A DNA stretch of 58,047 nucleotides, from IMG/VR virus record IMGVR_UViG_3300048582_000144, positions 1-58,047 of that record; one strand, written 5' to 3'. Position numbers and translations under genes: made by a program. The stretch's first letter is position 1. Every line of letters starts with the position of its first letter. This document shows positions 531-58,047 of this stretch, one piece after another. Origin of the DNA: a virus. Lineage: Duplodnaviria; Caudoviricetes. Under the pieces are notes generated by a model. That model was not told where the DNA came from, ran no database searches, and worked only from the letters and a program-made list of their open reading frames with translations.

Positions 531-535
531 AACCC

Positions 536-2819: not shown

Positions 2820-2825
2820 TTATCC
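2783..2825 (-). mobile_element. attI-like site 2
   Basis: Minus strand GGATAAT-TCTCT-GTTAGCC plus an upstream GGATAAT repeat; near-identical to site 1. Confidence 0.7.
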
Positions 2826-2833
2826 CGCCCCAC

Positions 2834-14300: not shown

Positions 14301-17300
14301 CCCCCACCCCAGCAGCCAAGGAATCCTTGACCACTGAGACGCGAACCACCGAAGCCGTCGAGGCATCACTATCAGAATCCGAGAAGCAGCAAGCCGCCGT
14401 TGAGCTTGGACATAAATCATGGACACCGGAGGCCCGAAAGTCGTTCCTTAGCAGACTCGCGGACTGGATGGTTTCAGGTGTTGAGTCGTCGGCAAAGCTG
14501 GCGGCCATGTTCGCGAAGGTCGTGAAACGAGCAGCGCTTTCAGTAGTTGTTGCAGTGAGCATCACATCGACCACAGCGCCAACGGTTGAAGCAATCTCCG
14601 CATCCGCGATTACAAACCAGTCCCCTGCCGTTCCATTCGCCAAGGAAACGCAAGAGATTGGAAGCGTGATGCAGCCGACCGTTATTCCAAGGAAGGAAAC
14701 CACAGCACCATCAGCCACCTCGCAGACGCCATCAGCCAGCTTTGGCAGTCAAGAGACATCAGACAACGTGCGCGTCATGGCTGATTGGGTGATGGGCAAC
14801 AGAGACAACCGAGGCAAGCCGTTCACAATCGCGGACAAGACCGAAGGATCGATCTACTTCTTTGATGGCACCGGGACGCTAGTTGAAGCTGCCCCAGCCA
14901 TCTACGGATCAGCCAAAGGCGATGTTCTATCTGAACGCCAGTTACGCCAAGGGATCGCATCAACCCGCGCCAACAAAGCAGACCAAATCACACCAGCCGG
15001 AAGATTCGAGACAGCAACCAGCAAATCCAGAGCATATGGCGAGGTTGTTCCAGTGATGAGCAAGAAGGCGGGAAGCCGCATTGCGATTCACAAGGTGTTT
15101 CTTGGCCGTGAATCGACCGAAAAAAGACAGCGCCGACTTTCCACGCCAACAGGTGCAGACAACCGGATCAGCCTTGGCTGCATCAATGTCCCTGCATCGG
15201 TGGCAAAATCCGCCGCAGGCTTATTCCGCGAAGGCGGGATTGTTTATGTGCTACCGGAAACCAAAGCAGGGAAAGAGCTGTTCAGCGGCTTTGAAGCGCT
15301 CGACACAAAGCAAACCGACAAGGGCACCGCGCTCTTCTCCTCCGCGTCTCCTAGCCAATTTCCGGAAGTCGAAACAATCGCAAAAACCAGTCTCACCGAA
15401 CCACCAAACAAGTATGAATATGAAGCCTATGAACACCCAAGCCCGCAAGTCCGGCAATTCCTCCAAATCAATCGCCTCCAAGGGTATCGAAGAACACCTG
15501 ATTCTTCCGACACCCGAAGAATTGAAGAGATTACAGGCGCAACCATTATCTTCGTTCGAGGGACTCCCAAACTTACTCTCGGAAGGAATAGCACGACTCA
15601 CCCGAGGATTGTAGCGATCAACACCGAATATCCCATGGCATCCGTGGGATATGGCATCGTTCACGAGTTGGTTCATGTCGCGCAGAAGGACAGCAGCACC
15701 CAAGCACGCTCAATTCTGAGAGACATCCGAAGCCTTCTTTCCACTAAAGAGGTCGAGCGGATCAATGGATACCTGCACAACTATGGATACGGAAACTCTT
15801 CGCCAGAAGAGGTTGCCGCAGAGTTCCAAGCGTTCCTTGTGGCCGACGCGGTGATGGGGACCAACTACATCGGTATCGACAACCTCCAGAAAAGCCAGGA
15901 GATGAAGTACCTTTTGCGCGGGTTCTTTAGCGGGCTCCCGCGACTCTCACCAAACAACGGGATCATGGAGTTGTTCAGCTCAGGGAACGCCCTGTTCTCC
16001 AGCGCCAGCCGCAACGGCCAATCCCCCTACTCCGCTCCCATCCCGCCGGCAGTCATCGCCAAAATGTGGGGATCACTCACCGCCCTGGTGGAATCCGGCC
16101 AAGTGACATCACCCGAGAGTCTGGCCGCCACGCTGAAGAAGTTCGGACCCGGAGCGCCGAAGCTGTCCCAAGGATTGTGGAGCATCATTTCCGCAGTGAA
16201 GGGCGAGGCCCCGACCGCTCCCGATTGGGCTGGCATCTACGGTGCGAGCGTGCAGACTCCCGGGGATGGACAGCAGGTTCAGACTGGTGAAGGCGCTGGC
16301 GACGTTGTTGCTGGAGGCGGCGAAAGCCGCGTGGCGGTGGGTGAGGAAGCAGTCAAGGAATCCTTGACCACTGAGACGAAGGAAGAAGCACCGGAACCCG
16401 GCACGCCGGACTTCCGTCTCCTCCCCACCGAAGACAAGAAGGAGATTGTTCAGAAAAAGCGCAAGGCCGCATCCGCCGAAAAAGCGGGAATCAACGACTT
16501 CGGAGAAAAGATCGGCGGAGCACGCAAAGACATGTCGATCAAGACCGGAGAGAAAACCCGCCCGAAAAAGACCAACGACAAGCCCGGATGGTTCAACCGA
16601 TATGAAGTCAATGAGGTTGTCGCGGAAACGAAGGCGTCTTCGCCGCTTGAGCGATACTGGATGCAATCCGCCAGTGCCAAACAGGAAGAGTCAGCAGTCG
16701 GTCGATTCGTCATCAACGACAAGCGCAAGCTCGACTGGAGCGGAAAACCGGAGCGAGCCACCCGTCAGACATTCGCCACCCGAGAGGAAGCTGAAGCGGC
16801 AATCCCATTGTTGGAAGCCTCGCGCAATCACAAGCTCCGCCGCGAGACAGTGGAAGGGGCTGACCAATGGGGTATATGGCGAATCGTCTCAGACCGCAAG
16901 CGGGTGCAGGTAGTGAAACAGACATTCGCCACCGAGAATGAAGCCCGAGAGTTCTTAGCAAAGAACGCCGCCGACATCATCGAGACCAAGACATCATGGC
17001 GCGAAGAGTTGATCGTGAAGCCTGAAAAGCCGGTCCGCAAAGGGCCAGAACGCCGCAACCGTCCCGCCGACAAGAAGATGTTCGAGGATGCTTTCGGATT
17101 TCGAGGAGTGGAGTTCGGCAACTGGATGCGCCAAGCTGGCGACGGCAAAGAACGCCAAGAGGTGTTGAACCACGCCTACGACGGTTTGCTTGACCTCGTG
17201 GAAATCCTCAACATCCCACCCAAAGCAATCAGTCTCAACGGCGATCTTGGTTTGGCGTTCGGGGCACGCGGGCAAGGACTCAGCGGAGCCAAGGCGCACT

Positions 17301-20300
17301 ACGAGCCGGATTATGTAGTGATCAACCTCACGAAGATGAGCGGAGCGGGCAGCCTTGCTCATGAGTGGATCCACAGCTTGGATCACTACCTTGGACGGCA
17401 GGATGGGCGAGCAAGCAGTGAGTGGATCAAGGACGCGTCCGGCAGCCGCATCAAGAAACCTGGCGGCCCCGAGCAATCCATGGTTTCCCACGGGTTCAGC
17501 CGCAAGGAATCGAAGGTCCGCGAGGAAGTCCGCAATGCCTTCACCCGACTGATGGACACCATCATGAACAAGTCGGTGGAGTTTGTGGAAGACAGCAACG
17601 CCGCAGAGCGGTTCGTGGAACGTGCTCGCACCGAGCTTGAAAAGAAACTTGGATCGCTCCGCAAGGACTACACCCGCGATCCTGATCCACGTTGGGAGAA
17701 ACGCCGCAAGCCTGCCACCGAGGCGCAACTGGCGGTGTTTGATGCCATGGCCGACCGCTTCCTCAACGGAATGGACTTGGAAACTGATTGGCGTCCCGTC
17801 GATGGCAAAGCCCGCCTGAACTATCGGTGGACCAACGATGCCTTGGAAACGCTGAACGCTCTTCACAAGGCCATCACCAACCGAAGCGGATTCAACAAGG
17901 ACGGCGGCCAACTCGACCACCTCCGCCAAGACATGAAGCATTATGCGGTGCGGATCAAGATGCTGGAAAGCGCCCAATCGACCGACACAAAGACCCGCAA
18001 GGTGCCAACAGCTTTCTCAATGAATGCCAAGGCTATCGACCAAGGCAGCCTTTCGGATTACTGGAATTTACCCCATGAAATGTTGGCACGCGGATTCTCC
18101 GCTTATGTGGAAGATAAGATTGCAGCCACCGGAGGGTCATCGGACTTCCTTTCCTACGGATCGGACAACCGCCTGCCGAAATACCGAATATTCAATGTGA
18201 AGCCCTTTCCCGAAGGCACCGAGCGCGAGGCAATTAACAGTGCATTCGACAACCTGTTCAACATCCTCGACACGAAGGAAACCGACAAGGGCACCGCGCT
18301 CTTCTCCTCCGCCTCCCCCGCTCGCCGCTCCGACCCCATCCTTGACCGCATCAAGGCCATGGTCGCCGATCCCGACAAGAAGGCCGAAACCTACGTCCGG
18401 GCCGCCCGCTACGTCTCCGACGTTCGCAACCGCTTCGACACAGGACGCCTCAAGCGCGAGTTCTCCGCTCAAGGCATCGACTCCGCCCGCTACACCATGA
18501 TCCGCGACGTGGCGATTCTGGAAGCCATTGTGAAGGCCCTGCCGAAAGAGATGCGTGGGAAGTTTGTTGGCAAGTTCCGCAACGTAGCAGAGATGAAGAC
18601 CGAGAAGGGACGGGAGCGATACATGCTGGCCATGCTCCCGAAGGTTGAGAAGGCACTGGAAGCGCACCTCCAGACGCTCTACCGCCAGGACATCAGGAAG
18701 GTCATTGACAAGAGCAAGCCCAAGCCCAACGCCAGCCGCAACCTTCGAGGCAAGATCGGTGCTTCCGGCCATGCCATCGTCAAACAGGCCGTCAGCGCCA
18801 TGACCCTGAAGGTGGACACCGAGAAACAACTGGAGATCGCCACCGATGCCCTTGCCAACGTCATCACCGAGACCACCAGCGACGAGGTTCAGGACATCGC
18901 GGAAACCGCCCTCGACCGCATCCGCCGCGCCAAGGACACCGAGGCCAAGCTGAAGATCGCCAACGAAGCCCTCTGGGAACTGGAGTCCACCGAGGATGAT
19001 GCGAACATCGCCGCCATCGTCAACCAGGCAACCAACGCGATGCTTCTCGACACCAACGAAGCCCTCACTCTTGCCGCGGCTCACCGGGAGAAGATCGAGA
19101 TCGGCACCAAGCGAGTCGGTGACGATGATGTTCCACTCACCCTCGACGAGTGGGAGGAGTTGGAAGGCAAAGCAGTCGCCCTTGAATTGTTCTCCGACTA
19201 CGAGAACGCCAGCAGCGCCCGTTTGGCGAAGGCGCTGGAGTTCCTGAAGGGTGTTTACTCCGAGAGCCGGGAGCAATGGCTTAAGGTCCTGAAGGAGCGC
19301 AAGGCGCAAAAGGAAGACGACATCGAGACCCTTCGCAAAACCATCAAGGCCCCGGACTTCATCACCAATGAGATGCTGGCGGCCGCCAAGAAGAAGTCTG
19401 AAAAGATCGTCCACCGTTTCGGCACGGCAATGCTCGAATGGATTTCGTCCTACGAGCAAATCCTCGGACAACTCAAAGAGAACACCCAAGATCCGCAAGC
19501 CCTCGCGTGGGTTGACGAGCAGGTTGCCAAACTCCGTGATGCACGCGGAGAGTATGACGACAAGCTCGAAGGCGAACGCGTGGCATTGGAGGAGGCGATG
19601 GCCGACATCTTCGGCACCGGCACCGGATGGACGGACAAGTTCAAGCTCGACCCGATCCTTCACGGACTATCCACGCGCCGCGAAGACCACGGCGTCACCG
19701 TGCTGGAAGGCGTGAGCAAGGATACCATCCCGGTCCCGGTAAAGCTGGCGGAATCGCTGGTCCGCAAGGAAACCAGCACCTACACCCACAACGGCGTCAA
19801 ATACGAGATCGTTGCTCAGGATATGGTTGCGCTGGAAGAAGCGTGGGAGCGATTCCAAGAACTTCCCGACGAAGCCCAAGGACGCAAGCCGCTGATCTAC
19901 TTCACCCGCGTCAAGAGCGAGGGCAAGCGCAACACCATCGGAGCCTATTCCCAACTCGAAATGCTCAAGGAGTGGCTGGCCATGCGCCAAGCCGACCTGG
20001 CCAAGAAATACGAGTCTCGCGGGTGGGACGAAACCACCATGGAGCAACTGGAATCCGCCCTCACGCCGGAAGTGAAACGCCTTGGCTTGTGGCTCGTGGA
20101 TCGACTGGAAAGCCAGCGTTCCGAGTTGGACGCCAAACACCGGAGCGAATACGGAATTGGCCTTGACCTCGTGGACAACTACTTCCCCGCGCTCTTCGAG
20201 AACGCGCAGAGCCAGGACAGCAACCTTGGACCCGATGGAGTGGACACGAACGTCGCCGCCAAGACAGCATCCGCCTTGAAAGGCCGGGTGGCGCACAACG

Positions 20301-23516: not shown

Positions 23517-23554
23517 TTGCGCCCGTATTTCAGCCGCCGGAATGGCCCCATGCT
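23517..23554 (+). promoter_or_regulatory. putative late promoter upstream of portal
   Basis: TTGCGCCCGTATTTCAGCC at 23517; CATGCT at +32. Confidence 0.65.
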
Positions 23555-23561
23555 CCCCGCC

Positions 23562-25709
23562 ATGGTGACAGTCGAGGCCAAGCAGACCGATTTCAACGGG
23601 AACGATTCCGAGCAGAAGCAGAGGCTCGTGGATATGGCCCGCTGGCAGACCAGCCCGCTCGCCCGCACCATGGACGACACCGAGCGCCGTTGGCTCCTCA
23701 ATCACGTCTGCAACCGGTTCCGCGACATGCACCAAGCCATGAGTATATGGCGGCACAAGATGCGCGTCTGGGAGCGCCAGAGCGAAGGAGACTTCAACGA
23801 CCGGATCATGGCACCGGACGAAGTAAACCCATCCACCGTCAAGGACATCTTCACCGAGCAGAACGACACCCTCGGATTGGTCAACGGATTCTGCGATTTC
23901 CACTACGCCCAGGCCAAAGACGACCTGTTCGGAACCAAGCCATGGCTCGCCGTCACCCCCGAAGGAAAGGCCGACATCGACCTCGCCGACACCATTTCCA
24001 AGCACGCGCAGTGGAAGTTCAACCACGCCGACATTGAGGCCACCTTGCTGGATGCCCTCCGCGTCTCGACATGGGGCGGGACAGCGTTCGTCAAATCCGC
24101 ATGGGAGAACGACGTGGAAACCTTCGAGCGCATCATCAACGCCGCGCACGATGCCATGACCGGCGAGCCGATCCGCAACGATGCCGGCGACTTCATCACC
24201 ACCGCCGAAGAGATCGAAGCCATCATCGAGCAGGGCGCACAGATCGACCCGGAAGCCGTGGATTGGCGGGAAGTGGAAATCAAAGACACCCTGGCCGTTT
24301 ACCAGAACGTCACCAATTCGATGGTGGACTACCACGACATCGCATTCGACCCGCTCGCCCCGGCCCTCGACCTCCGCCACACCGACGTATTCGTGAAATT
24401 CCGCATGGGAATGCTGGACGCGATGGCCAAGTTCAACATCCCCGACGAAGAGCGCGGCAACCTGCACGGTGCCATCACCGGCATTTCCGAGAACGCCCGC
24501 CACCACCGCGACGAGGTGAGCAACGACCTGCACGACAACTACGAGGAGCAGACCAACCCGGTGATCACGCTGGTTGAGGGATTTGTCCGGGTGAAGCCGA
24601 AGATGAACGGCGCACTCTCCCGCATCCACGTTATTTTCTCCCCGGACCTCCACATCCTGTTCGCCGTGGACTACCTCGCGAACATCACCCCCGGAGCGAT
24701 GCTCCCGGTGTTCCCGATCCGCATCAACAAGACCCCCGGCCGCATTTTCGGCGTGGGCTACTTCGAGAAGTTTCAGGACTTCAACAACGCGGTGGATCGC
24801 CAATACAACACCACCACCTACCGAAACCGCTTCAGCCAGCACGTTTACACTGCCGTCAACCCTTCCGCGCTCAAGGACGGAGGCGAAGGATTCGACATCA
24901 ACACCCTCGACCCGAAAACCCCCTACGAACTGGCGGTGGACAAGACCATCGACGCCTTCCTCCAGTTCAAAACGATGCCGGACAACAACACCCGGAGCAT
25001 CGAACTCATGAACCAAATGCTCCAGATGGCGCAGATGATTTCAGGCATCACGTCCGCAGCGCAGGGAGAGTTGAAAGGAGTCCCGAACGCCACCACCGCC
25101 ACCGGCGTTCGAGACCTTCAAAGCCGCGGGGCAACCATCCTGAAATCCCCCATCGACGAGCAATCCACCGACATCCGCGTGATCGTGGAATATGACGTGC
25201 ATGTCCTCTACGCGAACCACGACCACGACGAAACCTTCACCTGGAACGAAGGCCGCAACGCCGAGCTTCTGACGATGAAGGCAAACGACGTGGCCGGGCT
25301 CCGCGCGAATGTCACCTTGACCATGAGCCAGAGCCAGAACGCCCGGAAGATCGAAAGCGGGTTGTCTGCGATCAAAATGCTTCAGACCTACATCAGTCTT
25401 CCCGAGATCGACAAGACCACCGCCAAGCCTCTTTTCGAGCAAACCCTTTCAGCCCTCGGATTCCACAACGCCACCGACATCCTCCGCGATGGAGTGGTTG
25501 ACGCCGCATCGCTCTTGGAAATCGCCCCGCCGGAGCTTCAGGCCGCCGTGCAGATGGCCATCGAGCAGAGCGCGATGATGCCGCCGGCTGGAGCAGCCCC
25601 CGAAGAAATGCTCGACCCCTCCATGCCATTCCCCGGCGAGGAGGAAGAGCTTCCTCCCGAAGCAGCAGAAGCACCCGTTGCGCCCGTGGATGAATTCTCT
25701 GCCGTCTGA
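23562..25709 (+). CDS. portal protein (P22/podovirus-like)
   Basis: About 715 aa; G.G..E.F.D.N...D and SGITSAAQG..TATATG patterns; acidic Pro-rich tail; position in the genome. Confidence 0.75.
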   Translation: MVTVEAKQTDFNGNDSEQKQRLVDMARWQTSPLARTMDDTERRWLLNHVCNRFRDMHQAMSIWRHKMRVWERQSEGDFNDRIMAPDEVNPSTVKDIFTEQNDTLGLVNGFCDFHYAQAKDDLFGTKPWLAVTPEGKADIDLADTISKHAQWKFNHADIEATLLDALRVSTWGGTAFVKSAWENDVETFERIINAAHDAMTGEPIRNDAGDFITTAEEIEAIIEQGAQIDPEAVDWREVEIKDTLAVYQNVTNSMVDYHDIAFDPLAPALDLRHTDVFVKFRMGMLDAMAKFNIPDEERGNLHGAITGISENARHHRDEVSNDLHDNYEEQTNPVITLVEGFVRVKPKMNGALSRIHVIFSPDLHILFAVDYLANITPGAMLPVFPIRINKTPGRIFGVGYFEKFQDFNNAVDRQYNTTTYRNRFSQHVYTAVNPSALKDGGEGFDINTLDPKTPYELAVDKTIDAFLQFKTMPDNNTRSIELMNQMLQMAQMISGITSAAQGELKGVPNATTATGVRDLQSRGATILKSPIDEQSTDIRVIVEYDVHVLYANHDHDETFTWNEGRNAELLTMKANDVAGLRANVTLTMSQSQNARKIESGLSAIKMLQTYISLPEIDKTTAKPLFEQTLSALGFHNATDILRDGVVDAASLLEIAPPELQAAVQMAIEQSAMMPPAGAAPEEMLDPSMPFPGEEEELPPEAAEAPVAPVDEFSAV

Positions 25710-34593: not shown

Positions 34594-34599
34594 CCTTTG

Positions 34600-34650
34600 A
34601 AACACCTGTCCCTCGCGAGGGGGACGGGTTTTCCGGGCGAAAGGCAACAC
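34600..34650 (+). repeat. about 50-bp structured leader element, copy 1
   Basis: ACCTGTCCCTC-GCGA-GGGGGACGGGT hairpin, T run, GGCGAAAG..AACAC; near copy at 48401-48451. Confidence 0.8.
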
Positions 34651-34657
34651 CTACACC

Positions 34658-43202: not shown

Positions 43203-44249
43203 TCACTGGAAGAACTCTTTCCCATCCGCAGGAAGCACCGCCCGCCGGTAATGCCGGAACAGAGTCGTGCTGCCTGCCGTGTGGCCCATCACAGCCTTTG
43301 TGGCATCCTCGCCCTTCCATGCCAGATAGTGACTGGCGAACGTGTGCCGCATCACGTCCTGCATGTGACCAATTCCCGCGGTCTTGCGGATCCGCTGCCA
43401 CCGTTTTTTCCACCCCGCCGGAGCCACCGGCCCAGACTTCGGGTGCCCTTCGATCCCCCGCCGCAATGCCGGCGTGATTGGAATGTGGCGATCCGCACCG
43501 GTCTTGCTCGCCCCCTGCGAGACGTAAATCTCCGCCCGCCCCACATCCGCCCAATCCAGCCGCGAAATCTCCCCATTCTCGGAGTCGGGCCGGATTCCGG
43601 CATAGAGCAGCAGAGCAACTGCCCGGCGCTCCTCAGCGCTCTCGCAGGCGGCAAAGGACGCCTCGCATTGGTCTTTGGTCAAAATGTGGATCACCGCGCC
43701 TTTCTGGTGCCTCTCGCGGAAGCCAAGCACCGCCTGGACGCGAGAAGCCCGCATTTCGATCGTGCTTCGAGCCAAAGGCCCGTTGGAGCGCAACGCCTCC
43801 TCAATTCGTTCGCGGTCAATCGTGCCGCATGGCAGCGGCATCAGGGACGGCACCCACCGCGCCAACCGCTCCATGTCCAAAGAATACCGAGCGCTCCAAT
43901 GGGATTCACCCCAAAGCAGGGCGCGGGCGTACCGGGCGCGGAATGTCTCCTTGGAATCCTCCGTGGCGATTCTGGCGACCGCCAACCGGGCAGCCTCCAC
44001 CAGCGATATCCCGGACCCTTCAAGGATGCGGGAAGCCTCCGCCGCCTGGTGAGCGAGCGCCACCGGGATCATGCTCGACCGCAGACCGGTTCCATGCTGC
44101 CGCCGCATCGAGGATGCGAATTTCTCCGCCGCTGTCTTGCCGGGGAAATACTTCCGCTGGCGGCGACCCGCGGCATTCATGGCAGCAGGGATGGAAACCA
44201 TCCATCCTTTCGGGGTTTCCACCACGTTGAATTTTGGAGATCGGGCCAT
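43203..44249 (-). CDS. int: tyrosine recombinase (phage integrase)
   Basis: AGIRP (R), SKTG (K), DVMRHTFAS, MGH, HY; attP-like site directly upstream. Confidence 0.92.
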   Translation of the reverse strand: MARSPKFNVVETPKGWMVSIPAAMNAAGRRQRKYFPGKTAAEKFASSMRRQHGTGLRSSMIPVALAHQAAEASRILEGSGISLVEAARLAVARIATEDSKETFRARYARALLWGESHWSARYSLDMERLARWVPSLMPLPCGTIDRERIEEALRSNGPLARSTIEMRASRVQAVLGFRERHQKGAVIHILTKDQCEASFAACESAEERRAVALLLYAGIRPDSENGEISRLDWADVGRAEIYVSQGASKTGADRHIPITPALRRGIEGHPKSGPVAPAGWKKRWQRIRKTAGIGHMQDVMRHTFASHYLAWKGEDATKAVMGHTAGSTTLFRHYRRAVLPADGKEFFQ

Positions 44250-44253
44250 GATA

Positions 44254-44273
44254 TTGTCGCCACTTGTCGCCCT
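44254..44273 (+). repeat. tandem arm-type integrase binding sites
   Basis: TTGTCGCCAC TTGTCGCCCT; related TCGCCAC and CCGCCAC around 44428-44445 on the other side of the core. Confidence 0.55.
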
Positions 44274-44330
44274 TTGGCGGATTACTGACGTGCATTCAGC
44301 TTCACCCAGATGCACGCAAATGCAAGAAAA

Positions 44331-44377
44331 GAGCCGCTGGTCGGATTCGAACCGACGTTTATCCTTCTCATTACGAA
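44331..44377 (-). mobile_element. attP core: 3' half of a tRNA-Thr(CGT)
   Basis: Minus strand TTCGTAA-TGAGA-AGGATAAAC-GTCGG-TTCGAAT-CCGAC-CAGCGGC-TC; no 5' half of the tRNA is present. Confidence 0.8.
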
Positions 44378-44495
44378 CGGGCAAAAGCGCATTGAATATG
44401 AACGGGTTATATCATCATGTCTGGGAATCGCCACCATGCCGCCACTTGCGAAATGATTTTGACGAACCCCATTATTTTGGACGATCATTGGGGAT

Positions 44496-48390: not shown

Positions 48391-48400
48391 CCCACAAAAG

Positions 48401-48451
48401 AAACACCTGTCCCTCGCAAGGGGGGCGGGTTTTGGAGGCGAAAGCCAACAC
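48401..48451 (+). repeat. about 50-bp structured leader element, copy 2
   Basis: ACCTGTCCCTC-GCAA-GGGGGGCGGGT hairpin, T run, GGC-GAAA-GCC, AACAC. Confidence 0.8.
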
Positions 48452-48459
48452 GCACAGAA

Positions 48460-48772: not shown

Positions 48773-48949
48773 ATGAACGACTACGAGATCGTCGCCACCT
48801 ACTCCGACCAGACCCTCGCGGGAGTCATCCGCGACCTGAGCACGGGCAAGGCATGGTGGCCCGATAAATCCCGGCTCCAAGCCGCCATCCACGAACAGAA
48901 CCTCCGCAAACTCCACGAGCACCAACAAGACACACAATCCGAACAATGA
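48773..48949 (+). CDS. hypothetical protein
   Basis: Overlaps the recT start. Confidence 0.5.
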   Translation: MNDYEIVATYSDQTLAGVIRDLSTGKAWWPDKSRLQAAIHEQNLRKLHEHQQDTQSEQ

Positions 48950-50247
48950 GCACAGAACTATCCACACAGCCGATGACCATCATCGACTCCCCCGCCGTCG
49001 CCAACCTGATGAATCCGCAGCGGTTCAATCAGATGATGATGATCGCCCAAACCATGGCTTCCGCCTCACTCATCCCCGAACATCTCCTTGGCCGCAAGAA
49101 GGGCGGCACGATGGAATGGTTCACCGCCGATGAAGTCCGAGCCAACTGCTTCCTCGTCGTCAACCAAGCATTCCGCTGGGAAATGGATCCGTTCGCTGTC
49201 GCGGCGGAAACCTACGTCGTCGGCGGCAAGCTGGGATTTCAAGGAAAGCTGGTGAAGGCAGCCGTCATGTCGCTGGCCGGCGTCGAACTCCGCCAGGCGT
49301 TCAACTCCAAACAAGGGCCGGACCTCGCCATCGTCGTTTACTCGACCCCGAACAACCGCGATGTCACCGAGTCCGAGCGGATCAAGATCGCCGCCTATGC
49401 CGAGACGGAAGACCGCGTTGCCATGAGTGAACTGGAGTTCTCCGGAATCAAGGCTGTCCGAGTCTCGGTTGCCCAAGCGAAAACCGACAATTCCATGTGG
49501 ACCAAGGATCCCGAGCAGAAGCTGGGTTACACCGGAGCAACAAAATGGGCACGCCGCCACAAGCCACAAATCATCCTTGGCGTACAGACCGACGATGACC
49601 TCGATTCGATGGACATGCGCGAGGCCCGCGGCCACGTTGTCGAACCCACCACTACGAAGGTCATTACTGGCAGCGACAGCACGCCACAGCCCGCCGCAGC
49701 AAAGCCCGCACCCGCAAAGGCACCGAAGGGAGCCAAGGCCGCACCAAAGGCGCAGGAAGCCGAGCCAGAAGCTGATATGCCAGAGCGGATGGACATGGTG
49801 AACGACCTCCGCGATGCCTACCAAGCCGCTGGGGTAAAAACCGGGCCGGAGGCGGAAGCCGTAATGCGCGAACACGGGCTTCTCCCAGTAGGAGTCGGGG
49901 TCGGTGGACTCAAAGACGTAAAACAGCTTTTTGCAATATGGGTGAGACGCGAAGAATTGTTTCCACCGATGGCCCCCCAAGCCATCCACGCCTTTTACAA
50001 AAGCCACACCGTTCGGAGATCCCCCGATGACTCCGAAAAGAAATGGACATGTTGGCAGCTCCAATACGAGGAGGCCGGCGGCGACGGCACAGTCAAGGAT
50101 GCGGTCACGTTCTCCAGCACGTTCGGGAAGATCCTCGACGGGCTCGAAGGTGAGGAAGCGATTCTCCTGACAGTGAAGAGCGGAGAGAAGGGCGATAGCA
50201 TCCAAACGCTGGCTCTCGCGCCAGCAGAGGGGAGGGCCGAAGCATGA
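48946..50247 (+). CDS. recT: RecT-family single-strand annealing protein
   Basis: ANCFLVVNQAFRW.MDPFAVA..TYVV.GKLGFQGKLV; W..DPEQKL.Y....WARRH.P.IILGV.T.DD. Confidence 0.85.
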   Translation: MSTELSTQPMTIIDSPAVANLMNPQRFNQMMMIAQTMASASLIPEHLLGRKKGGTMEWFTADEVRANCFLVVNQAFRWEMDPFAVAAETYVVGGKLGFQGKLVKAAVMSLAGVELRQAFNSKQGPDLAIVVYSTPNNRDVTESERIKIAAYAETEDRVAMSELEFSGIKAVRVSVAQAKTDNSMWTKDPEQKLGYTGATKWARRHKPQIILGVQTDDDLDSMDMREARGHVVEPTTTKVITGSDSTPQPAAAKPAPAKAPKGAKAAPKAQEAEPEADMPERMDMVNDLRDAYQAAGVKTGPEAEAVMREHGLLPVGVGVGGLKDVKQLFAIWVRREELFPPMAPQAIHAFYKSHTVRRSPDDSEKKWTCWQLQYEEAGGDGTVKDAVTFSSTFGKILDGLEGEEAILLTVKSGEKGDSIQTLALAPAEGRAEA

Positions 50248-50498: not shown

Positions 50499-51004
50499 AC
50501 ACGCTGCACCTCTGGATGGGAATCGCCATCGGCACCATCACCGCGCTTCTGATCATCCTTGCTATCATTCACTTTGCTGGAAATGCGAACGCAGAGAAAG
50601 CGAAGGTCGCAGGAGACCGCAACTTTGCCGAACTCCAACGCCGGAACAACATCGGTGATTCGCAGGTGAACGCCTTGTGGGAAATTGCTACCCACCTCGC
50701 CAAACAGAACAACCTCATTGCCCCAAGCGAAGACTGGGACGATCTGGACGATGACGACGAGGACCGCGTGGACAAGCTCGCCGAGATGAAGCGCAAGAAG
50801 GAGTCATGGCAGGCGGAAACAATCCGGCTGGAGAATGAGTTGATCCGGGTGAGTGAAGAGCGGAACGCGCTCACCGTCGCGGCGGAGTCATTCATCGAGG
50901 GATACGAAAAACTCTCACCGCAGGCGACGGCGGCCCAAATCTTCCGGCCTACCTTGCGCCTCACGAAAGCGGCAATCTCAATCACAGCAAGGAGGGCCGA
51001 GTGA
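50495..51004 (+). CDS. membrane-anchored hypothetical protein
   Basis: N-terminal hydrophobic helix followed by a coiled coil. Confidence 0.6.
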   Translation: MNTLHLWMGIAIGTITALLIILAIIHFAGNANAEKAKVAGDRNFAELQRRNNIGDSQVNALWEIATHLAKQNNLIAPSEDWDDLDDDDEDRVDKLAEMKRKKESWQAETIRLENELIRVSEERNALTVAAESFIEGYEKLSPQATAAQIFRPTLRLTKAAISITARRAE

Positions 51005-51624
51005 GCTACACCGTCCACACCATGCCCCAACGCTCGCCTGAGTGGCTGGCTATCCGTCGCGGAAAGATCACGGGATCATCGGTCGGCAAGTTCGTTTACA
51101 ATACAGACAAGAAGTCTCTCGACGCTCGCGTAAACCTGATAGATACCATCATTGGCGAGGAAGCCGATGGCGACGACTGCGAGCCCGGCTATGAGACGTA
51201 TTGGATGAAGCGAGGCACCCGATTGGAACCGCAAGCCCTTGCCGCTTACGAGGCATACACGGGAAACGAGATCGAGCAGGTGGGATTTGTCAGCCACAAC
51301 ACGCTGCCGCTTGGAGTCTCGCCCGACGCGCTGGTCAGCGGTCGCGCTTTCGGGCTCGAAATGAAGTGCCCCGGAGGCAAAGTGGCCTACAAGCGCATCC
51401 GTGAGAAAGTCTGCCCAGAAGAATACCTGCCGCAGATATGGCTCTCGATGATCGTGATGGATGTTCCCGAATGGCACTTCTGGTCATGGCATCCCAAGAT
51501 TCCAGCGTTTCACACCATCGTTCGGCGGTCGGACATCCCTGCCGGATTTGAACCAGGAGTGATTGCGCTTTGCAACGAACTCACCCGGCAGAAAGCAGAG
51601 ATCGAAGCCATGATGGCAGACTAA
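51001..51624 (+). CDS. YqaJ/lambda-exonuclease family protein
   Basis: QRSPEW...RRGKITGS, RG..LEP.A...YE, SPDAL, LEMKCP, Y.PQ. Confidence 0.92.
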   Translation: MSYTVHTMPQRSPEWLAIRRGKITGSSVGKFVYNTDKKSLDARVNLIDTIIGEEADGDDCEPGYETYWMKRGTRLEPQALAAYEAYTGNEIEQVGFVSHNTLPLGVSPDALVSGRAFGLEMKCPGGKVAYKRIREKVCPEEYLPQIWLSMIVMDVPEWHFWSWHPKIPAFHTIVRRSDIPAGFEPGVIALCNELTRQKAEIEAMMAD

Positions 51625-51637: not shown

Positions 51638-52258
51638 ATGACCACCCCATCACCAATCATCGTCTGCGGACTCCCTCGATGCGGATCCAGCCTCACCCTG
51701 CAAATGCTCGACGCCGCTGGCATCCGATGCGACGGCGAACACCCGACATTCGAGAGCGACCAGAAGCGCGTCCTCAAGCCCCGCACCGCAGAATACATCC
51801 GCGAGTGGCAGGACGGAGCCGTAAAGGTCCTCGAACCCCACGTCATGACCCTGCCGGAGGGATTCCACTATCGTTTCCTGTTCCTCACTCGGAGTCGCCG
51901 CCAGCAAGCGCTCTCGCAGTTGAAATTCATGCGACTGATTGGAGTGCTCACTGGACACGTCGATGACTACCAGATTGCCGAATACGAGCGGCGGTTGAGG
52001 GAAGACGAAGCGAAGTCACTGCAAGCCATCACCGGCCACATCGGGAGCGTGCTCAAGATCCGCTTCGAGGACCTGATTGCGCGGACGGAATCCGCCGTGG
52101 ACCGCATCGTATGGTTCCTGCAACTCACACCGGAGCAGAAGGAACAGATGATCGCCAAGGTTCGCCCGCGGTCGGTGTCGGTCTATCCCGGGATGCTGGA
52201 ACTGGAGCTGATTCAAGAGCGGGAAGCGGCGAGGGAGAAAGGAGGAGCGGAGTCATGA
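51638..52258 (+). CDS. sulfotransferase-family (P-loop) protein
   Basis: IIVCGLPRCGSSL..QML, FLTR......SQ, IRFEDL. Confidence 0.75.
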   Translation: MTTPSPIIVCGLPRCGSSLTLQMLDAAGIRCDGEHPTFESDQKRVLKPRTAEYIREWQDGAVKVLEPHVMTLPEGFHYRFLFLTRSRRQQALSQLKFMRLIGVLTGHVDDYQIAEYERRLREDEAKSLQAITGHIGSVLKIRFEDLIARTESAVDRIVWFLQLTPEQKEQMIAKVRPRSVSVYPGMLELELIQEREAAREKGGAES

Positions 52259-53857: not shown

Positions 53858-54207
53858 GCACCCGCCAAAAAGTGAACGACAAGTGGACCGTCTATGATCC
53901 GCCGTGGGTTGAGACCGTTCCCAACGAACCATTCCGCTACCGTGTGGAATCAAAATCGTTGTCGGACATTTTCCACTTCGTCGATCTCACCGCCCGCAAC
54001 GGTCACGGTCGTTGTTCCTGCGTATTTTTCCAAATGGTCGCCGAACCAAACTTCCGTCGGCATGGCAACTGGATTCCATACGCCCCTGGTCGCGAGGGAG
54101 TCAGTGAGTGCAAGCATATCCGCGCGGCCTTCGACCATTACCACCTCTACGTCACCTGCCCGATGCTCGCGTCATTCGCAGACGGGATTCCTAATACTTT
54201 ACATTGA
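53854..54207 (+). CDS. SWIM-type zinc finger protein
   Basis: CSC...CKH motif. Confidence 0.7.
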   Translation: MSTRQKVNDKWTVYDPPWVETVPNEPFRYRVESKSLSDIFHFVDLTARNGHGRCSCVFFQMVAEPNFRRHGNWIPYAPGREGVSECKHIRAAFDHYHLYVTCPMLASFADGIPNTLH

Positions 54208-54833
54208 AACCACTTTTGCCGCCCGCCATGGTCCCCACATCACTCAAAGGAAAGGAATTCGAAACGCTGATTCTCGAAGCTGCAAGGCGCGAGGAAGCCA
54301 GTGGAGGATTGACTCTCTCTCGCTACGGCGTGCAAGGCGTCATCTTCGGGGGTAAGACTATTCTCGTCCCCTCACTTCCAGACTTTGATGGATGCTTGGC
54401 CGGCGGGCGGCAAATCATCATCGAGGCAAAGTGCATGCAGGGTGCTTCGTTCCCCCTCAATGACGACAAGTTCAAGAACCGACAGTATGCCCACATGGCA
54501 AAGCGTGCTGAGTTCGGCGCACTATGCTTCCTTCTAATCCACTTCGCGGAACGCCGTCTAATGTCCAAGAACGATCCGGGCATGACAATTGCCGTTCCCG
54601 TGAGTGCCCGCCATCCGTTCTGGATGCTATACGAACAAGGCGAACGCAAAAGCCTCCCGCGCGACGAAGCGCAATCCATTGGGCAAATCGTCCCTTGGAC
54701 CATCCCCAGAGGCTGCCGCAAAGCGCTCCCTGACCTTCTCTCGTTCCTGTGGCCGGAAGCCCGCAGTATCCAACTCGAAACAGCAAAACCAAGCTCTCCC
54801 CAGCCCGGCGAACTCCCCTTGGACAACGACTAA
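54204..54833 (+). CDS. recU: RecU-like Holliday junction resolvase
   Basis: GKEFE, PDFDG....G..IIIEAK, NRQY; stop codon lies inside the first attC. Confidence 0.78.
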   Translation: MKPLLPPAMVPTSLKGKEFETLILEAARREEASGGLTLSRYGVQGVIFGGKTILVPSLPDFDGCLAGGRQIIIEAKCMQGASFPLNDDKFKNRQYAHMAKRAEFGALCFLLIHFAERRLMSKNDPGMTIAVPVSARHPFWMLYEQGERKSLPRDEAQSIGQIVPWTIPRGCRKALPDLLSFLWPEARSIQLETAKPSSPQPGELPLDND

Positions 54834-54910
54834 GCCCATGCACGCCGACCCAAACATATCGAATCCAAGCAGCAACGCCCCCGGCGTTGCATGCGGCGAC
54901 CTTGTTCTGG
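54821..54910 (-). mobile_element. attC-like site (distal end of the array)
   Basis: R'' CCAGAAC ... R' GTTGTCC. Arms GCC-CATGCA-CGCCG versus GCCGCATGCAACGCCG. Confidence 0.85.
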
Positions 54911-55122
54911 ATTGCGATTTCTGCGGTAAGCCTGCCGAGTCCGTGGTAACTCATCAAGGCACAGGTAAAATATGGAGAGCCTGCACCGAGTGCATCGACA
55001 TCCGGCGCATGAGGCGGCGGTCTACGCCCTACAACGTAGAAATTATCCAGAACGATCAAGGCCATGCGATCCGGACCGGGAGCGCCGCGCCGCCAACACC
55101 CAGAACTAACGAATCACCCTGA
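54838..55122 (+). CDS. small zinc-finger-like protein (CDFC...CTEC), cassette-borne
   Basis: Starts inside one attC and stops inside the next; core ends GTTCTGG/CCAGAAC. Confidence 0.6.
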   Translation: MHADPNISNPSSNAPGVACGDLVLDCDFCGKPAESVVTHQGTGKIWRACTECIDIRRMRRRSTPYNVEIIQNDQGHAIRTGSAAPPTPRTNESP

Positions 55123-55171
55123 AAATCCAACAAGGGAGCGGGTCCGGGTCGCATGCGCTGCCTTGTTATGC
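55047..55171 (-). mobile_element. attC-like site
   Basis: R'' GCATAAC ... R' GTTCTGG. Arms GC-CATGCGATCCGGACC versus GCGCATGCGACCCGGACC. Confidence 0.87.
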
Positions 55172-55203
55172 TCTTCGAGAATCTCCGAAAACTATACGAC
55201 AAT

Positions 55204-55401
55204 ATGAAAAAATCAACACTCTACGCATTAATCCAAGGGGCCTCAATAGGTGTGGTTGTTCTCACGCTCGGGTATAATCCGCTGCAATGGGAGTGGTGGG
55301 CATTAATTATCTCGCTGAACGTAGCTTTGGTTTGCAGTTCTCTGCATAACGCCGATGTGGATACGCGGCGCGCAGATGCCCGAACTCAACAAGGCGGCTA
55401 G
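55204..55401 (+). CDS. small two-helix membrane protein, cassette-borne
   Basis: Core ends GTTATGC/GCATAAC; AT-rich. Confidence 0.6.
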   Translation: MKKSTLYALIQGASIGVVVLTLGYNPLQWEWWALIISLNVALVCSSLHNADVDTRRADARTQQGG

Positions 55402-55430
55402 TCGCCGTCGCCAGCATGCACTTGTTAGCG
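55344..55430 (-). mobile_element. attC-like site, chimeric
   Basis: 55347-55410 is identical to 57028-57091, but the last part of the arm differs and pairs poorly; R'' CGCTAAC. Confidence 0.8.
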
Positions 55431-55474
55431 GGCCGAATTACCGAACAACTCAACCAACACGAAAGACCAAAACT

Positions 55475-55702
55475 ATGGGACAAGCCAAACAGCGCGGAAC
55501 CTTCGAGGAACGCCGCCAGCAATCAATCGACCGCGCCGAAGCGGAGAGGCTGGAACGCCAACGCAAGGAAGCGGAATGGTGGAACTCTCTCACCGACGAG
55601 CAAAAGGAAAACGTGCGCCAGAACCGCGCGCGCCGCGCCCGAAACATGCAGGCAATGGCCGCGTGGATGGGTCTTGGCTACTCACTCGGCGGGAGGTTCT
55701 AA
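55475..55702 (+). CDS. small phage protein (MGQAK.RGTFEER motif), cassette-borne
   Basis: Core ends GTTAGCG/CGCTAAC. Confidence 0.7.
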   Translation: MGQAKQRGTFEERRQQSIDRAEAERLERQRKEAEWWNSLTDEQKENVRQNRARRARNMQAMAAWMGLGYSLGGRF

Positions 55703-55706
55703 GTCC

Positions 55707-55821
55707 CGCTAACGCTCAAACTGAGCCATGCGGTTGCTTGGCGCGATCAGTGCCCGCACGCAGTGCGGAAATAGCACTGATCGTGACAAGCAATCGCATT
55801 GGCTCCAGTGCTTTGTTAGGC
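55707..55821 (-). mobile_element. attC site (long, well paired)
   Basis: R'' GCCTAAC, R' GTTAGCG. CTG-AGCCA-TGCGGTTGCTTGGCGCGATCAGTGC versus CTGGAGCCAATGCGATTGCTTGTCACGATCAGTGC. Confidence 0.93.
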
Positions 55822-56178
55822 TCATTTTTCATTTAGCTCGTTGTTATGGCGTTCGATTTCTTTAAGGTATCCGCTTTCAGGACGATGCCTCTGCCTCAAT
55901 CGATTCATAATCTCTTCTCTATCGTCCTTTGATCGGGGTCGTTCTGGAAAAAAGTAGAAAATTGACCGGTAATACAGCTCGCTGGTGATACTCTCACGCG
56001 GTTTGTGGTCATGCGTGCTCTCGTATCCAATAATGTAGAGCGTGGAGTGTAATCCGGCGGGATATAAAATGGGACCACGCCTTGCGCCGACTGCGTTCGC
56101 GCCGGCAAAAATCGGAGCGGCAAGATACGCGAACCCCACGGCGGCGCACGTCAGGATGATTACGGCTCTGCGTTTCAT
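55822..56178 (-). CDS. exported/membrane hypothetical protein, canonical-orientation cassette
   Basis: GTTAGGC-AGAAGA-ATG start; stop abuts R''; hydrophobic N-terminus. Confidence 0.75.
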   Translation of the reverse strand: MKRRAVIILTCAAVGFAYLAAPIFAGANAVGARRGPILYPAGLHSTLYIIGYESTHDHKPRESITSELYYRSIFYFFPERPRSKDDREEIMNRLRQRHRPESGYLKEIERHNNELNEK

Positions 56179-56184
56179 TCTTCT

Positions 56185-56311
56185 GCCTAACGTCAAAGGC
56201 CTGGCACCCCTGATCGGGAGCGAGCCTTCGACTGTGGTGTAAGGTTTATCATGCCAGTGGTCAATCGAACTCAAAGCGTATCAGGGGTTGTCCAGCGCCG
56301 GCTTGTTGGGC
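56185..56311 (-). mobile_element. attC site
   Basis: R'' GCCCAAC, R' GTTAGGC. GGC-CTGG-CA-CCCCTGAT versus GGCGCTGGACAACCCCTGAT. Confidence 0.9.
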
Positions 56312-56315
56312 TGTC

Positions 56316-56675
56316 TTATTGAGTCGGTCCATCGGCCACGAGTAAAGATGATCCTGCCTGTAGAACCAAGGCGGAATGGAACCAGATGAGAATCAATCCA
56401 AGACCGATTCCGCTAATCAATGTCCACCGCTTCGAGAACGATCCCGTATCATCGCGTTCACTCCAGATGGTGTATACTACCCATGCGAGTGGAATCAGAA
56501 TGAGGGTAAAACCCCAATTCCGGACGAATAGCATTAGAAGTGGAATATCGGCGAACTCATCAGGATATCCTCTGACTTTGAGTGTGACACCGAGCATGAG
56601 GGAACCTGTCATAATGATGCCCGCATGTAGGGCTCCAATAATCCTCTGCAATCGATACTCATCACGAAAGATCAT
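56316..56675 (-). CDS. three-helix membrane protein, canonical-orientation cassette
   Basis: Core ends GTTGGGC/GCCCAAC; stop 4 nt from R''. Confidence 0.78.
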   Translation of the reverse strand: MIFRDEYRLQRIIGALHAGIIMTGSLMLGVTLKVRGYPDEFADIPLLMLFVRNWGFTLILIPLAWVVYTIWSERDDTGSFSKRWTLISGIGLGLILIWFHSALVLQAGSSLLVADGPTQ

Positions 56676-56697
56676 CGAGTTAGCTTTCTATTATTTT

Positions 56698-56755
56698 GCC
56701 CAACATCCGCCGATCAGACACGCCGTAGGCGTTGTCTGTATCGCGCTGGTTAGCA
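56698..56755 (-). mobile_element. minimal 58-bp attC site
   Basis: Minus strand TGCTAAC-CAGCG-CGATACAGACAACGCC-TAC-GGCGTGTCTGATCG-GCGGAT-GTTGGGC. Confidence 0.93.
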
Positions 56756-56766
56756 CTCTTCTAAAA

Positions 56767-57030
56767 ATGAACTACTCCACAATAATCGAACGCATCTCTC
56801 CCGACTCACTCAGCCGGGTAGAATACCGTTACTGGCAGCGCGCCGAAATGCGCATGGAACTGGACTGGATAGTCCACCAGACGCGCCCTACAAAACGGCA
56901 CGGCTGGCGTCTTGAAAAACGCTGGTCGCGCCTGCAATCGCGAAACAACAACATGGCCAGAGAGGAGCCACCGCAGGACGTAAAAGACGAACTGCGCAAG
57001 AAAATCAACGATGCGCTCTCTTTCTGCTAA
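56767..57030 (+). CDS. hypothetical protein (RPTKRHGW motif), cassette-borne
   Basis: Core ends GTTAGCA/TGCTAAC; stop TAA lies within the core. Confidence 0.7.
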   Translation: MNYSTIIERISPDSLSRVEYRYWQRAEMRMELDWIVHQTRPTKRHGWRLEKRWSRLQSRNNNMAREEPPQDVKDELRKKINDALSFC

Positions 57031-57111
57031 CGCCGATGTGGATACGCGGCGCGCAGATGCCCGAACTCAACAAGGCGGCTAGTCGCCGTCGTATCCCACG
57101 ACTTGTTCCCC
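57025..57111 (-). mobile_element. attC site
   Basis: R'' GGGGAAC, R' GTTAGCA. GTGG-ATACG-CGGCG versus GTGGGATACGACGGCG. Confidence 0.9.
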
Positions 57112-57140
57112 GTTGCCCGAATCACCGAAAGACTAACATC

Positions 57141-57953
57141 ATGGAAAACTCTAAAATCGAATGGACTCACCACACCTTCAATCCGTGGAACGGATGCACG
57201 AAGGTATCGCCCGGCTGTCTGCACTGCTACGCCGAAACGCTCATGGATACCCGATATGGTCGGGTGAAGTGGGGAAAAGGACAGCCACGCTCTCGCACGG
57301 CTGCTGAAAACTGGCGCAAGCCGAAGCAATGGAACAAAGCCGCCGACGGTGCCGCCGAGCGTCCACGGGTGTTCTGCGCGTCACTGGCTGACTGGCTCGA
57401 CGACGAGGTGCCGATTGAGTGGCTGGCGGATCTGCTGGAACTCATCGCGGCAACTCCGAATCTTGACTGGCTGCTACTCACCAAACGCCCCGAAAACTGG
57501 TATCGCCGCGTGAGCCTCGTAGATGGCGAAATGGCGGAAAGCTGGATCGACTGCATCGACATGCCCGAGCGTGGAACTATCCCCGAAAACGTATGGATCG
57601 GAACAAGCGCGGAAGATCAAACGCGATGGGATGAGCGGATGCCGCTACTCATGGAAATTCCCGCCCGCGTCCGCTTCGTGAGTGCGGAGCCGCTGGTCGG
57701 CAGAATCCACATGGGCGAGCTTCGCCCCGACTGGCTGATCGTCGGCGGTGAGAGTGGACCAGGCGCAAGGCCCATGGAACGCGAGTGGGTGGAAATCCTC
57801 TGCGACCAATGCGACGACCGAACCGCCTTCCACTTCAAGCAGTGGGGAGGCGTGGACAAGAAAGCCACTGGCCGCGTGCTGAATGGCCGGACATGGGACG
57901 AATTACCATCTTCGGGGAACGCCGAGTCCATCCACCCCGAATCGAAGCCTTAA
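57141..57953 (+). CDS. phage Gp37/Gp68 (DUF5131) radical-SAM-like protein, cassette-borne
   Basis: SKIEWT..TFNPW.GCTKVSPGC.HCYA, LLTKRP, SAEPL, GGESG..ARPM, FKQWGG; core ends GTTCCCC/GGGGAAC. Confidence 0.92.
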   Translation: MENSKIEWTHHTFNPWNGCTKVSPGCLHCYAETLMDTRYGRVKWGKGQPRSRTAAENWRKPKQWNKAADGAAERPRVFCASLADWLDDEVPIEWLADLLELIAATPNLDWLLLTKRPENWYRRVSLVDGEMAESWIDCIDMPERGTIPENVWIGTSAEDQTRWDERMPLLMEIPARVRFVSAEPLVGRIHMGELRPDWLIVGGESGPGARPMEREWVEILCDQCDDRTAFHFKQWGGVDKKATGRVLNGRTWDELPSSGNAESIHPESKP

Positions 57954-58040
57954 AATCATGAACCAGAATCAAACTGAATCGAAGCCGCCAAGCGTTGAAG
58001 AACCCCGTAATGAGGGGTTGGATGGGACGCCTTGTTCGGC
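57914..58040 (-). mobile_element. attC site
   Basis: R'' GCCGAAC, R' GTTCCCC. GTCC-ATCCA-CCCC versus GTCCCATCCAACCCC; the loop holds one stop and one start codon. Confidence 0.88.
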
Positions 58041-58047
58041 ATTCTCT
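57958..58047 (+). CDS. 5' fragment of the next cassette gene, starting inside the attC loop
   Basis: ATG 4 nt after the upstream stop; open to the window end (MNQNQTESKPPSVEEPRNEGLDGTPCSAFS). Confidence 0.45.
   Translation, partial: MNQNQTESKPPSVEEPRNEGLDGTPCSAFS

Follow-up and report, generated by a model that had tools for sequence, protein, structure and literature searches.

Does a tailed phage maintain integron cassettes, and if so, which enzyme would move them and how would their genes be read? The question is raised by IMGVR_UViG_3300048582_000144, a Caudoviricetes record of IMG/VR whose 58,047 bases were analysed as a whole (hereafter the window) and in which small genes alternate with hairpins that have the geometry of attC, the recombination site of integron cassettes. 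The record is classed as linear with a CheckV completeness of 96%, and from its sequence we read it as the nearly complete genome of a temperate tailed phage. We find that this phage carries two integron-type cassette arrays within its replication/recombination operon. Array 1 spans the interval from the RecU-like gene to DnaB, is interrupted by the contig ends and holds at least nine attC sites; array 2, with one cassette and one hairpin, lies between an unnamed gene and the terminator ahead of terS and has phage genes on both sides within the contig. We consider it highly probable that these are genuine integron-type arrays, and predict that they are recombined by an integron integrase (IntI).

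The evidence that carries this reading begins with the hairpins and the cassette ends. The ten attC-geometry hairpins of the original prediction (eight at the right end of the window and two near its left end) were all found (Table 1). In all ten, the first seven bases have the form NNNNAAC and the last seven the form GTTNNNN; spacers are 5-7 nt, lengths 58-127 nt, and the extra-helical bases lie without exception on one arm, as had been noticed, namely the 3′ arm of the plus strand. The nine pairs of complementary 7-mers that the prediction had named also stand at the cassette ends, so that the rule holds in 9 of 9 cassettes of the window, with a chance expectation of ~2e-22 over the four free positions. 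As likewise predicted, the two ends of one hairpin as it stands do not match: they agree at only 0-3 of the four free positions. Matching cores of this kind are the footprint of a one-sided site-specific crossover, and this part of the earlier interpretation stands, although its placement of the crossover at G/TT (the slash marking the cut) does not, as discussed below. Complementary cores also stand at 17 of 23 junctions in ten other loci with related hairpins (L006, L007, L008, L011, L013, L015, L017, L024, L026 and L029). One window hairpin, H3, is chimeric, with a 64-nt beginning that repeats positions 57028-57091 of H7 exactly and an outer 3′ arm that is unpaired.

To describe the hairpins quantitatively, we used a covariance model (R1) built from nine of them on the plus strand, with H3 left out; a simple scanner for AAC...GTT folds proved unspecific and was set aside in favour of R1. 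Across both strands of the window, apart from the nine training hairpins, which match by construction, H3 alone scored below E = 0.99 (48.6 bits). RNAalifold on nine hairpins returned 16 base pairs, 12 of them with compensatory changes. When the set was widened to 34 related hairpins from the window and eleven other loci, AAC and GTT were invariant in all 34. Pairing was present in 92.7% of stem cells, compared with 66.7% in shuffles and 28-51% in slid-partner controls, and double-sided changes numbered 131, compared with 41.9 in shuffles (none of 500 shuffles reached 131), in an alignment that was fitted to the model and therefore somewhat favours the pairing result.

The fine structure of the hairpins also agrees with that of real attC sites. 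In such sites, according to PMC5027507 (Nivina et al. 2016), the arm facing the AAC of the recombinogenic bottom strand is the one that carries the extra-helical bases. Position 16 holds the first of these and position 23/24 the last, which is a conserved T, and a stem of 6 bp separates the two. Sites range from 57 to 141 bp, and their spacers measure 5-6 nt. As a control we took two real attCs from the class 1 integrons of the phage P1 record MH445380, with the arms aligned as for the window hairpins, and in the dfrA attC the extra bases fell at 16 and 23 of the top strand. Read on the minus strand, the window hairpins have an inner extra base at 21-23 in nine of ten cases, always an A (T on the plus strand), and a single outer extra base at 14-17 in seven of ten; in H2 a 4-base gap spans position 16, and no outer extra base was called in H7. 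The R1 match to the dfrA attC (23.6 bits, E 4.8e-4) was on the bottom strand of that site. In the Vibrio-type integron of phage MK672802, all seven R1 matches (E <= 10; 11-20 bits) lay on the bottom strand and within the cassette array, and none at that threshold fell in the 27 kb of phage genes.

Both array ends that are complete in the window close with the same exact 20-nt motif, which directly follows AAC (492-511 and 2787-2806). The two copies of this attI-like site lie within a 59-nt repeat (477-535 and 2772-2830) that is 83% identical, and the copy of array 2 is followed by a terminator hairpin at 2834-2867 (-24.6 kcal/mol, z -3.2) and then by terS. The exact motif recurs in three IMG/VR contigs and eight metagenome stretches, with R1 hairpins ahead of it on the same strand in L006, L007, L008, L011, L013, L015 and L017. 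It stands at the 3′ end of an open reading frame (ORF) in three viral and five metagenome contigs, and seven of these eight have an upstream hairpin; L014 has no hairpin in its 200 nt upstream of the motif and an IntI homologue downstream. The sequence AACAGAGAATTATCCC is invariant across ten instances of the motif whose flanks are unrelated, which points to the DNA itself being constrained, rather than the short peptide encoded there. In L014, L017 and L006 the motif lies 32-47 nt ahead of IntI homologues. We read the conserved 20-nt end motif as a putative attI, at which new cassettes would dock.

Further features were observed around these ends. A conserved T/C-rich run of TCTCTG or TTCTG type directly precedes the 7-mer core in many cassettes (477-494, 2772-2789 and most cassette 3′ ends) and occurs also at 56179-56184, where it does not code for any part of the local gene. 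Together with AGAGAA of the motif, this run makes up an inverted repeat at the attI junctions. This run may be part of the integrase binding site. A sigma-70-like match on the minus strand, 552 to 524 (TTGTCG, 17 nt, GATAAT), lies within the attI of array 1 and points into the array, where the classical cassette promoter (Pc) sits; such matches were no commoner there than in shuffles. The array end in L026 (8714-8800) and L042 (2400-2560), from a viral contig with full IntI, has a different but similar motif, AAC followed by AGTGATTCTCC, which suggests that attI sequences may co-vary with IntI subtypes.

The gene found beside the motif in other contigs encodes a homologue of IntI. In both L014 and L017 the motif is followed on its own strand, after ~47 nt, by the start of a gene with PF13495 and PF00589 matches; its product scores 223 bits against TIGR02249 compared with 108-115 bits for XerC/D, and is 42% identical to IntI1 over 270 residues in an alignment that crosses the IntI-specific extra domain. 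The Mu-like phage contig L006, which encodes a MuB/TniB-like ATPase and has a weak match to GemA below threshold, carries a truncated IntI homologue (176 aa) at the same place. Its locus at 8585-11744 holds four cassettes, one of them encoding a 492-aa C-5 cytosine DNA methylase that starts within its hairpin, and then the attI motif and the truncated IntI homologue. G005, an 84-kb viral contig with a CheckV completeness of 88%, has six hairpins and a variant end motif, 62 nt beyond which lies an IntI homologue of 323 aa (212 bits against TIGR02249, 35% identical to IntI1); L044 is a second contig with the IntI-attI-array unit found in G005. These relatives show the classical arrangement, in which intI points away from the attC top strand.

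Of 1124 metagenomic homologues of the L014 protein (E <= 1e-20), the best 120 are all at least 56% identical to it; they are mostly unnamed or labelled XerD and include one named as from an uncultured Caudovirales phage and one as from a Verrucomicrobiota metagenome-assembled genome (MAG); the longest contigs listed for the homologues are 13-62 kb. As a single-sequence query of viral contigs, the same protein returned only weak generic recombinases without hairpins. A two-sequence IntI alignment returned seven loci, of which six were scanned with R1; the seventh, L045, lies in the same viral contig as L026. L047-L050, at 30-33% identity, gave no R1 matches, and their sites may have diverged too far for a window-derived model to recognize.

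Which strand of these hairpins corresponds to the attC bottom strand determines where a cassette begins and ends. The complementary-core rule alone is compatible with both polarities. Four lines of evidence point to the plus strand as the bottom strand: the extra-helical bases lie opposite AAC on the plus strand; R1, built on that strand, matches the dfrA attC of MH445380 on its bottom strand; the seven matches in MK672802 are likewise all on the bottom strand; and in the relatives intI has the orientation of the motif and is found on its right. Given that assignment, the cut would fall at AA/C to the left of the hairpin, and a cassette would consist of a hairpin together with the gene after it. 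In 25 of 36 hairpins an internal ATG opens an ORF that extends at least 30 codons beyond the GTT core. Five of the ten window hairpins show such a start, of which those in H3 and H7 look spurious, because the DUF5131 match begins at 57141.

The orientation of the cassette genes agrees with expression as part of the phage operon. Seven of the nine complete cassette genes run in the direction of the operon and thus along the attC bottom strand, opposite to classical integron cassettes. Three of the nine have family matches, to phrog_419, to DUF5131/phrog_2045 and, weakly, to a Lar-like Zn ribbon; for the remaining six no family match reached significance. Homologues of DUF5131 were found in 19 viral loci, four of which have R1 hairpins on the same strand, one of these (L027) being a duplicate of L026. 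At 43 junctions with a long open frame upstream, pooled over loci and not fully independent, AAC is read as a codon in 35, with the stop 2-23 codons further on; six of the eight other junctions have a stop within the core. Given an in-frame AAC base rate of 0.56 in this phage's genes, the bias has p = 4e-4. Cassette genes would then be expressed by read-through from phage promoters with coupled translation, and we read the fixed junction frame, with a stop just ahead of the next start, as providing translation coupling in any cassette order.

Table 1. Coordinates of the array elements and of named phage genes in the window (positions 1 to 58,047); bit scores marked R1 are from the covariance model
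Feature	Position	Strand	Remarks
attI-like site, array 1	492-535	+	AAC triplet at 492-494 (cut AA/C), then conserved motif; DnaB start codon at 536
attI-like site, array 2	2787-2830	+	Intrinsic terminator 2834-2867 follows
H1 attC-like hairpin	54821-54910	+ (bottom strand)	70.1 bits R1; distal end of array 1; AAC overlaps last RecU-like codons
H2 attC-like hairpin	55047-55171	+	99.6 bits R1
H3 attC-like hairpin	55344-55430	+	48.6 bits R1, outside training set; chimeric
H4 attC-like hairpin	55707-55821	+	-42.1 kcal/mol
H5 attC-like hairpin	56185-56311	+	
H6 attC-like hairpin	56698-56755	+	Short, 58 nt; 30.8 bits R1
H7 attC-like hairpin	57025-57111	+	
H8 attC-like hairpin	57914-58040	+	Loop holds ORF start 57958; ORF runs off contig end
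H0 attC-like hairpin	92-180	+	Of array 1 cassette adjoining attI
Hb attC-like hairpin	2324-2444	+	Sole hairpin of array 2
Cassette gene 1	54838-55122	+	94-aa Zn-ribbon protein, weak Lar-like match; starts within H1
Cassette gene 2	55204-55401	+	Small membrane-like protein, no family match; alternative start 55153 in H2
Cassette gene 3	55475-55702	+	75-aa charged protein, no significant family match
Cassette gene 4	55822-56178	-	118 aa, hydrophobic N-terminus, no family match; attC top strand (canonical direction)
Cassette gene 5	56316-56675	-	119-aa membrane-like protein, no family match; attC top strand
Cassette gene 6	56767-57030	+	87 aa; TAA stop within TGCTAAC core
Cassette gene 7	57141-57953	+	DUF5131/phrog_2045 (Gp37/Gp68-type phage protein), 265.9 bits
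Array 1 cassette gene adjoining attI	216-524	+	phrog_419 family; runs through AAC into attI, tail NRELSQPKPE
Array 2 cassette gene	2457-2819	+	120 aa; runs through AAC into attI, tail NRELSRPEPE
DnaB	536-2056		Profile search
terS	2958-3473		Profile search
terL	3470-5284		Profile search
Portal protein	23517-25709		Profile search
Tyrosine integrase of the phage	43203-44384	-	PF00589, 31.2 bits; adjoins repressor-like gene
RecT-like protein	48946-50247		Profile search
Exonuclease	51001-51624		Profile search
RecU-like Holliday-junction resolvase	54204-54833		Profile search

The phage itself has no recognizable integron integrase: a TIGR02249 search of the window ORFs found no IntI. DnaB starts 42 nt after the attI of array 1, the terminator and terS follow that of array 2, and intI is present at neither place. 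The only recombinase found in the genome is the tyrosine integrase at 43203-44384, which has no similarity to the IntI homologue of L014 and no TIGR02249 match. This gene was missed in an initial genome search with PF00589 and came above the cut-off in a Pfam scan of its ORF, so a first-look PF00589 filter can miss divergent integrases. Because the phage's only tyrosine recombinase is unrelated to IntI, we infer that IntI must act in trans.

The absence of IntI is the first of several points that weigh against the arrays being genuine and functional. The ~4% of the genome that is unassembled lies inside array 1 and could in principle hold intI, which is unlikely because the interior of array 1 is far from the normal position of that gene. 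The IntI homologues in other contigs score below the curated TIGR02249 cut-off of 265 (223 and 212 bits). R1 was built by us from the window hairpins and is not a curated attC model, and its matches to real attCs are weak (11-24 bits). Six of the 23 junctions in other loci violate the core rule; three of these match in six of seven letters, and at least two cross long gaps in which a hairpin was possibly missed. At the distal array ends there is no conserved right half of attI. In a search of one genome per species, the 20-nt motif also occurs in two bacterial MAG contigs, Acidobacteriota and Zixiibacteriota, without hairpins, where ~2 chance matches are expected; we considered these as host integrons and, with no hairpins present, treated them as chance. 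The metagenome matches L016 and L018 are these same two MAG sequences, and L012 is without array context.

The state of the assembly and the isolation of this phage weigh in the same direction. Both contig ends (1 and 58047) lie inside array 1, and their joining is an assumption. The cores are mismatched across them (GTTCGGC at 58034-58040 and AGCGAAC at 92-98), so that the contig probably lacks cassettes at this point; the assembly may have broken because attC sequences are repeated or variable. Queries with DnaB and terL and a blastn comparison with isolate phages found no close relative that could show gain, loss or reordering of cassettes at the cores: the DnaB query gave one 67% relative (L001) with no other gene in common, no hairpin and no motif, the terL query returned none, and blastn matched the DUF5131 gene alone. 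The array was not found in any of the 17 public sequencing runs listed (word share <= 0.07 in all).

We weighed these points against other explanations of the same features. In T4-type phages, promoter stem-loop (PeSL) cassettes are shuffled by homologous recombination between near-identical repeats, and the window resembles them in that hairpin-bearing repeats flank small accessory genes in a plastic phage region. The hairpins might accordingly be regulatory or structural repeats (terminators, RNA leaders or stem-loops of PeSL type) between which genes are exchanged by homologous recombination: they stand between genes of one operon, many contain both the end of the preceding gene and the beginning of the following one, H3 and H7 share 64 identical nt, and RecT, an exonuclease and a RecU-like resolvase are encoded next to the array. 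Homologous exchange does not, however, yield complementary 7-mers specific to each cassette, as found in 9 of 9 cases here and 17 of 23 elsewhere, and the hairpins, unlike PeSL repeats, differ in sequence, keep structure alone and carry the integron crossover footprint. They are followed by no T-run, they match real attCs, and in the relatives they adjoin IntI homologues. Taken together, this makes the explanation by regulatory repeats scarcely credible. Only slightly better placed, and still very improbable, is the polarity of the original prediction, in which the plus strand is the top strand, each hairpin follows its own gene and crossover occurs at G/TT on the right. Most genes are on the plus strand with a hairpin after them, as in classical cassettes, one stop codon falls in a TAAC core (57025-57031) and the core rule fits either way. 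Yet the side of the extra-helical bases defines the plus strand as the bottom strand, R1 matches real attCs on bottom strands only (1 of 1 in MH445380, 7 of 7 in MK672802), the conserved end motif and intI are on the right, and a G/TT crossover would sever the ORFs that start in hairpin loops from their bodies. We conclude that the polarity is the reverse of that first proposed.

Another explanation is that the arrays are passive cargo, dead fragments of a bacterial chromosomal integron acquired by illegitimate recombination or introduced by misassembly, with no role in phage biology. This would fit a phage without IntI, the non-pairing chimera H3, the minus-strand genes at 55822-56178 and 56316-56675 that match no phage family, and the origin of the complete phage integrons in print as captured host fragments (PMC9892861). 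On the other hand, there are two separate arrays, each with its own attI copy and one internal between phage genes; the cassettes include phage families (phrog_419, DUF5131); seven of nine genes follow the phage operon; and the G+C content of the array (0.55) is near that of the phage (0.53-0.64). The same design is found in unrelated uncultured viral contigs, and the matching IntI family has one member named in NCBI as an uncultured Caudovirales phage, with longest listed contigs of 13-62 kb. We therefore regard passive cargo as unlikely, although it is the least improbable of these alternatives. Finally, the phage's own tyrosine integrase might move the cassettes, being the only recombinase found in the genome. 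That it does not resemble the IntI homologue adjoining the attI motif common to these loci, has no TIGR02249 match, adjoins a repressor-like gene like an ordinary lysogeny integrase and lies ~10 kb from either array leaves this with hardly any probability.

For genuine integron-type arrays, the route would be as follows. IntI would cut at AA/C to the left of each folded hairpin on the plus strand, and new cassettes would enter at the conserved attI-like site that closes each complete array end. The host, a prophage or a co-infecting phage would supply the enzyme in trans, and it would be of the IntI type that neighbours this attI motif in other contigs. Cassettes may still move at present. The original prediction held that the phage varies its accessory genes by cassette recombination; the part of this that survives is that integron-type attC sites bound cassettes in a phage replication/recombination operon, and current movement was not borne out.

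A broader reading joins these elements. The phage would belong to a large, undescribed lineage of phage-borne integrons with an IntI clade of its own that is labelled XerD in databases. In this lineage the cassettes would be reversed, with attC preceding the gene and in part encoding its start; genes would exit in one frame via AAC; and attI would lie at the 3′ end of an ORF in a phage operon. The cassettes would then be plug-in units of a translationally coupled operon, and members without intI would use IntI in trans. We hold this joint reading to be evenly poised between right and wrong.

The remaining genes of the window, named by profile searches, include tail proteins as well as those in Table 1. 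A single 5517-aa ORF (5336-21889, plus strand) makes up 28% of the genome; Pfam gives only one LPD1 domain (large polyvalent protein-associated domain 1), in its second half, and it has a 300-nt internal repeat (12712-13011 and 16027-16326) that is 96% identical. A direct repeat of 57 nt with a G+C-rich palindrome (34599-34655 and 48400-48456, 86% identical) may be a repeated terminator or regulatory site. A sulfotransferase-family gene (51638-52258, plus strand; PF13469 and PF00685) lies within the phage recombination module.

Comparison with known systems shows which of these features are familiar. The window arrays share with integrons, and with clusters of attC sites lacking integron integrases (CALINs), the AAC and GTT boxes, the unpaired spacer, extra-helical bases at 16 and 23, a variable loop and, in the window, lengths of 58-127 nt. 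With integrons they also share the cassette-specific complementary core footprint and, in relatives, array ends at a conserved site adjoining an IntI homologue, with intI facing away from the attC top strand. In contrast to a complete integron, this phage has no intI, and most of its cassette genes lie on the attC bottom strand, with the hairpin ahead of the gene and often containing its start codon. The genes are read toward attI (in relatives, toward intI), so that a classical Pc would be unable to drive them; a single fixed frame leads the ORFs across the junction; and the attI-like site lies at the 3′ end of an ORF in a phage operon, twice in this one genome. A CALIN, defined by at least two attC sites with no intI nearby, describes array 1 with its nine or more sites, whereas array 2 has one attC only.

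The original prediction had considered such arrays rare in phages, but integrons and attC clusters in phages are already in print. In 10,705 phage genomes, all isolates, PMC9892861 (Qi, Rajabal, Ghaly, Tetu, Gillings 2023) reports 3 complete integrons, one In0 and 17 CALINs, each CALIN with at least two predicted attC sites (three in TJE1, Figure 2A). IntI1 recombined 5 of 6 tested phage attCs, and the complete phage integrons were units of Vibrio, class 1 or Shewanella type that phages had captured. Integrase-free attC clusters in phages are thus not new. In the literature on phage and viral integrons, in which this was the only directly relevant paper, we found no description of reversed cassettes or gene polarity, of attI-bearing arrays without intI, or of a phage-linked IntI family; for that article this covers the sections consulted, and its supplementary tables may bear on array sizes. 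Insertion of cassettes outside att sites, at attG (bioRxiv 10.1101/2022.09.11.507474), would also explain cassettes in a genome without an integron platform. Here, in contrast, both complete array ends share a 20-nt motif linked to IntI elsewhere, which favours a dedicated attI over an incidental secondary site.

Integrons are regarded as bacterial gene-capture platforms, and the examples published from phages are either short attC clusters or fragments captured from hosts. Should phages run an integron lineage of their own, they would have a defined, enzyme-driven route to mosaic accessory regions, with an integrase clade of their own, a docking site within phage operons and cassettes turned for expression by phage transcription. 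The reversed polarity and the fixed junction frame raise the question of how promoterless cassettes can be expressed in any order. Such a lineage would also let cassettes pass directly between phages and bacterial integrons.

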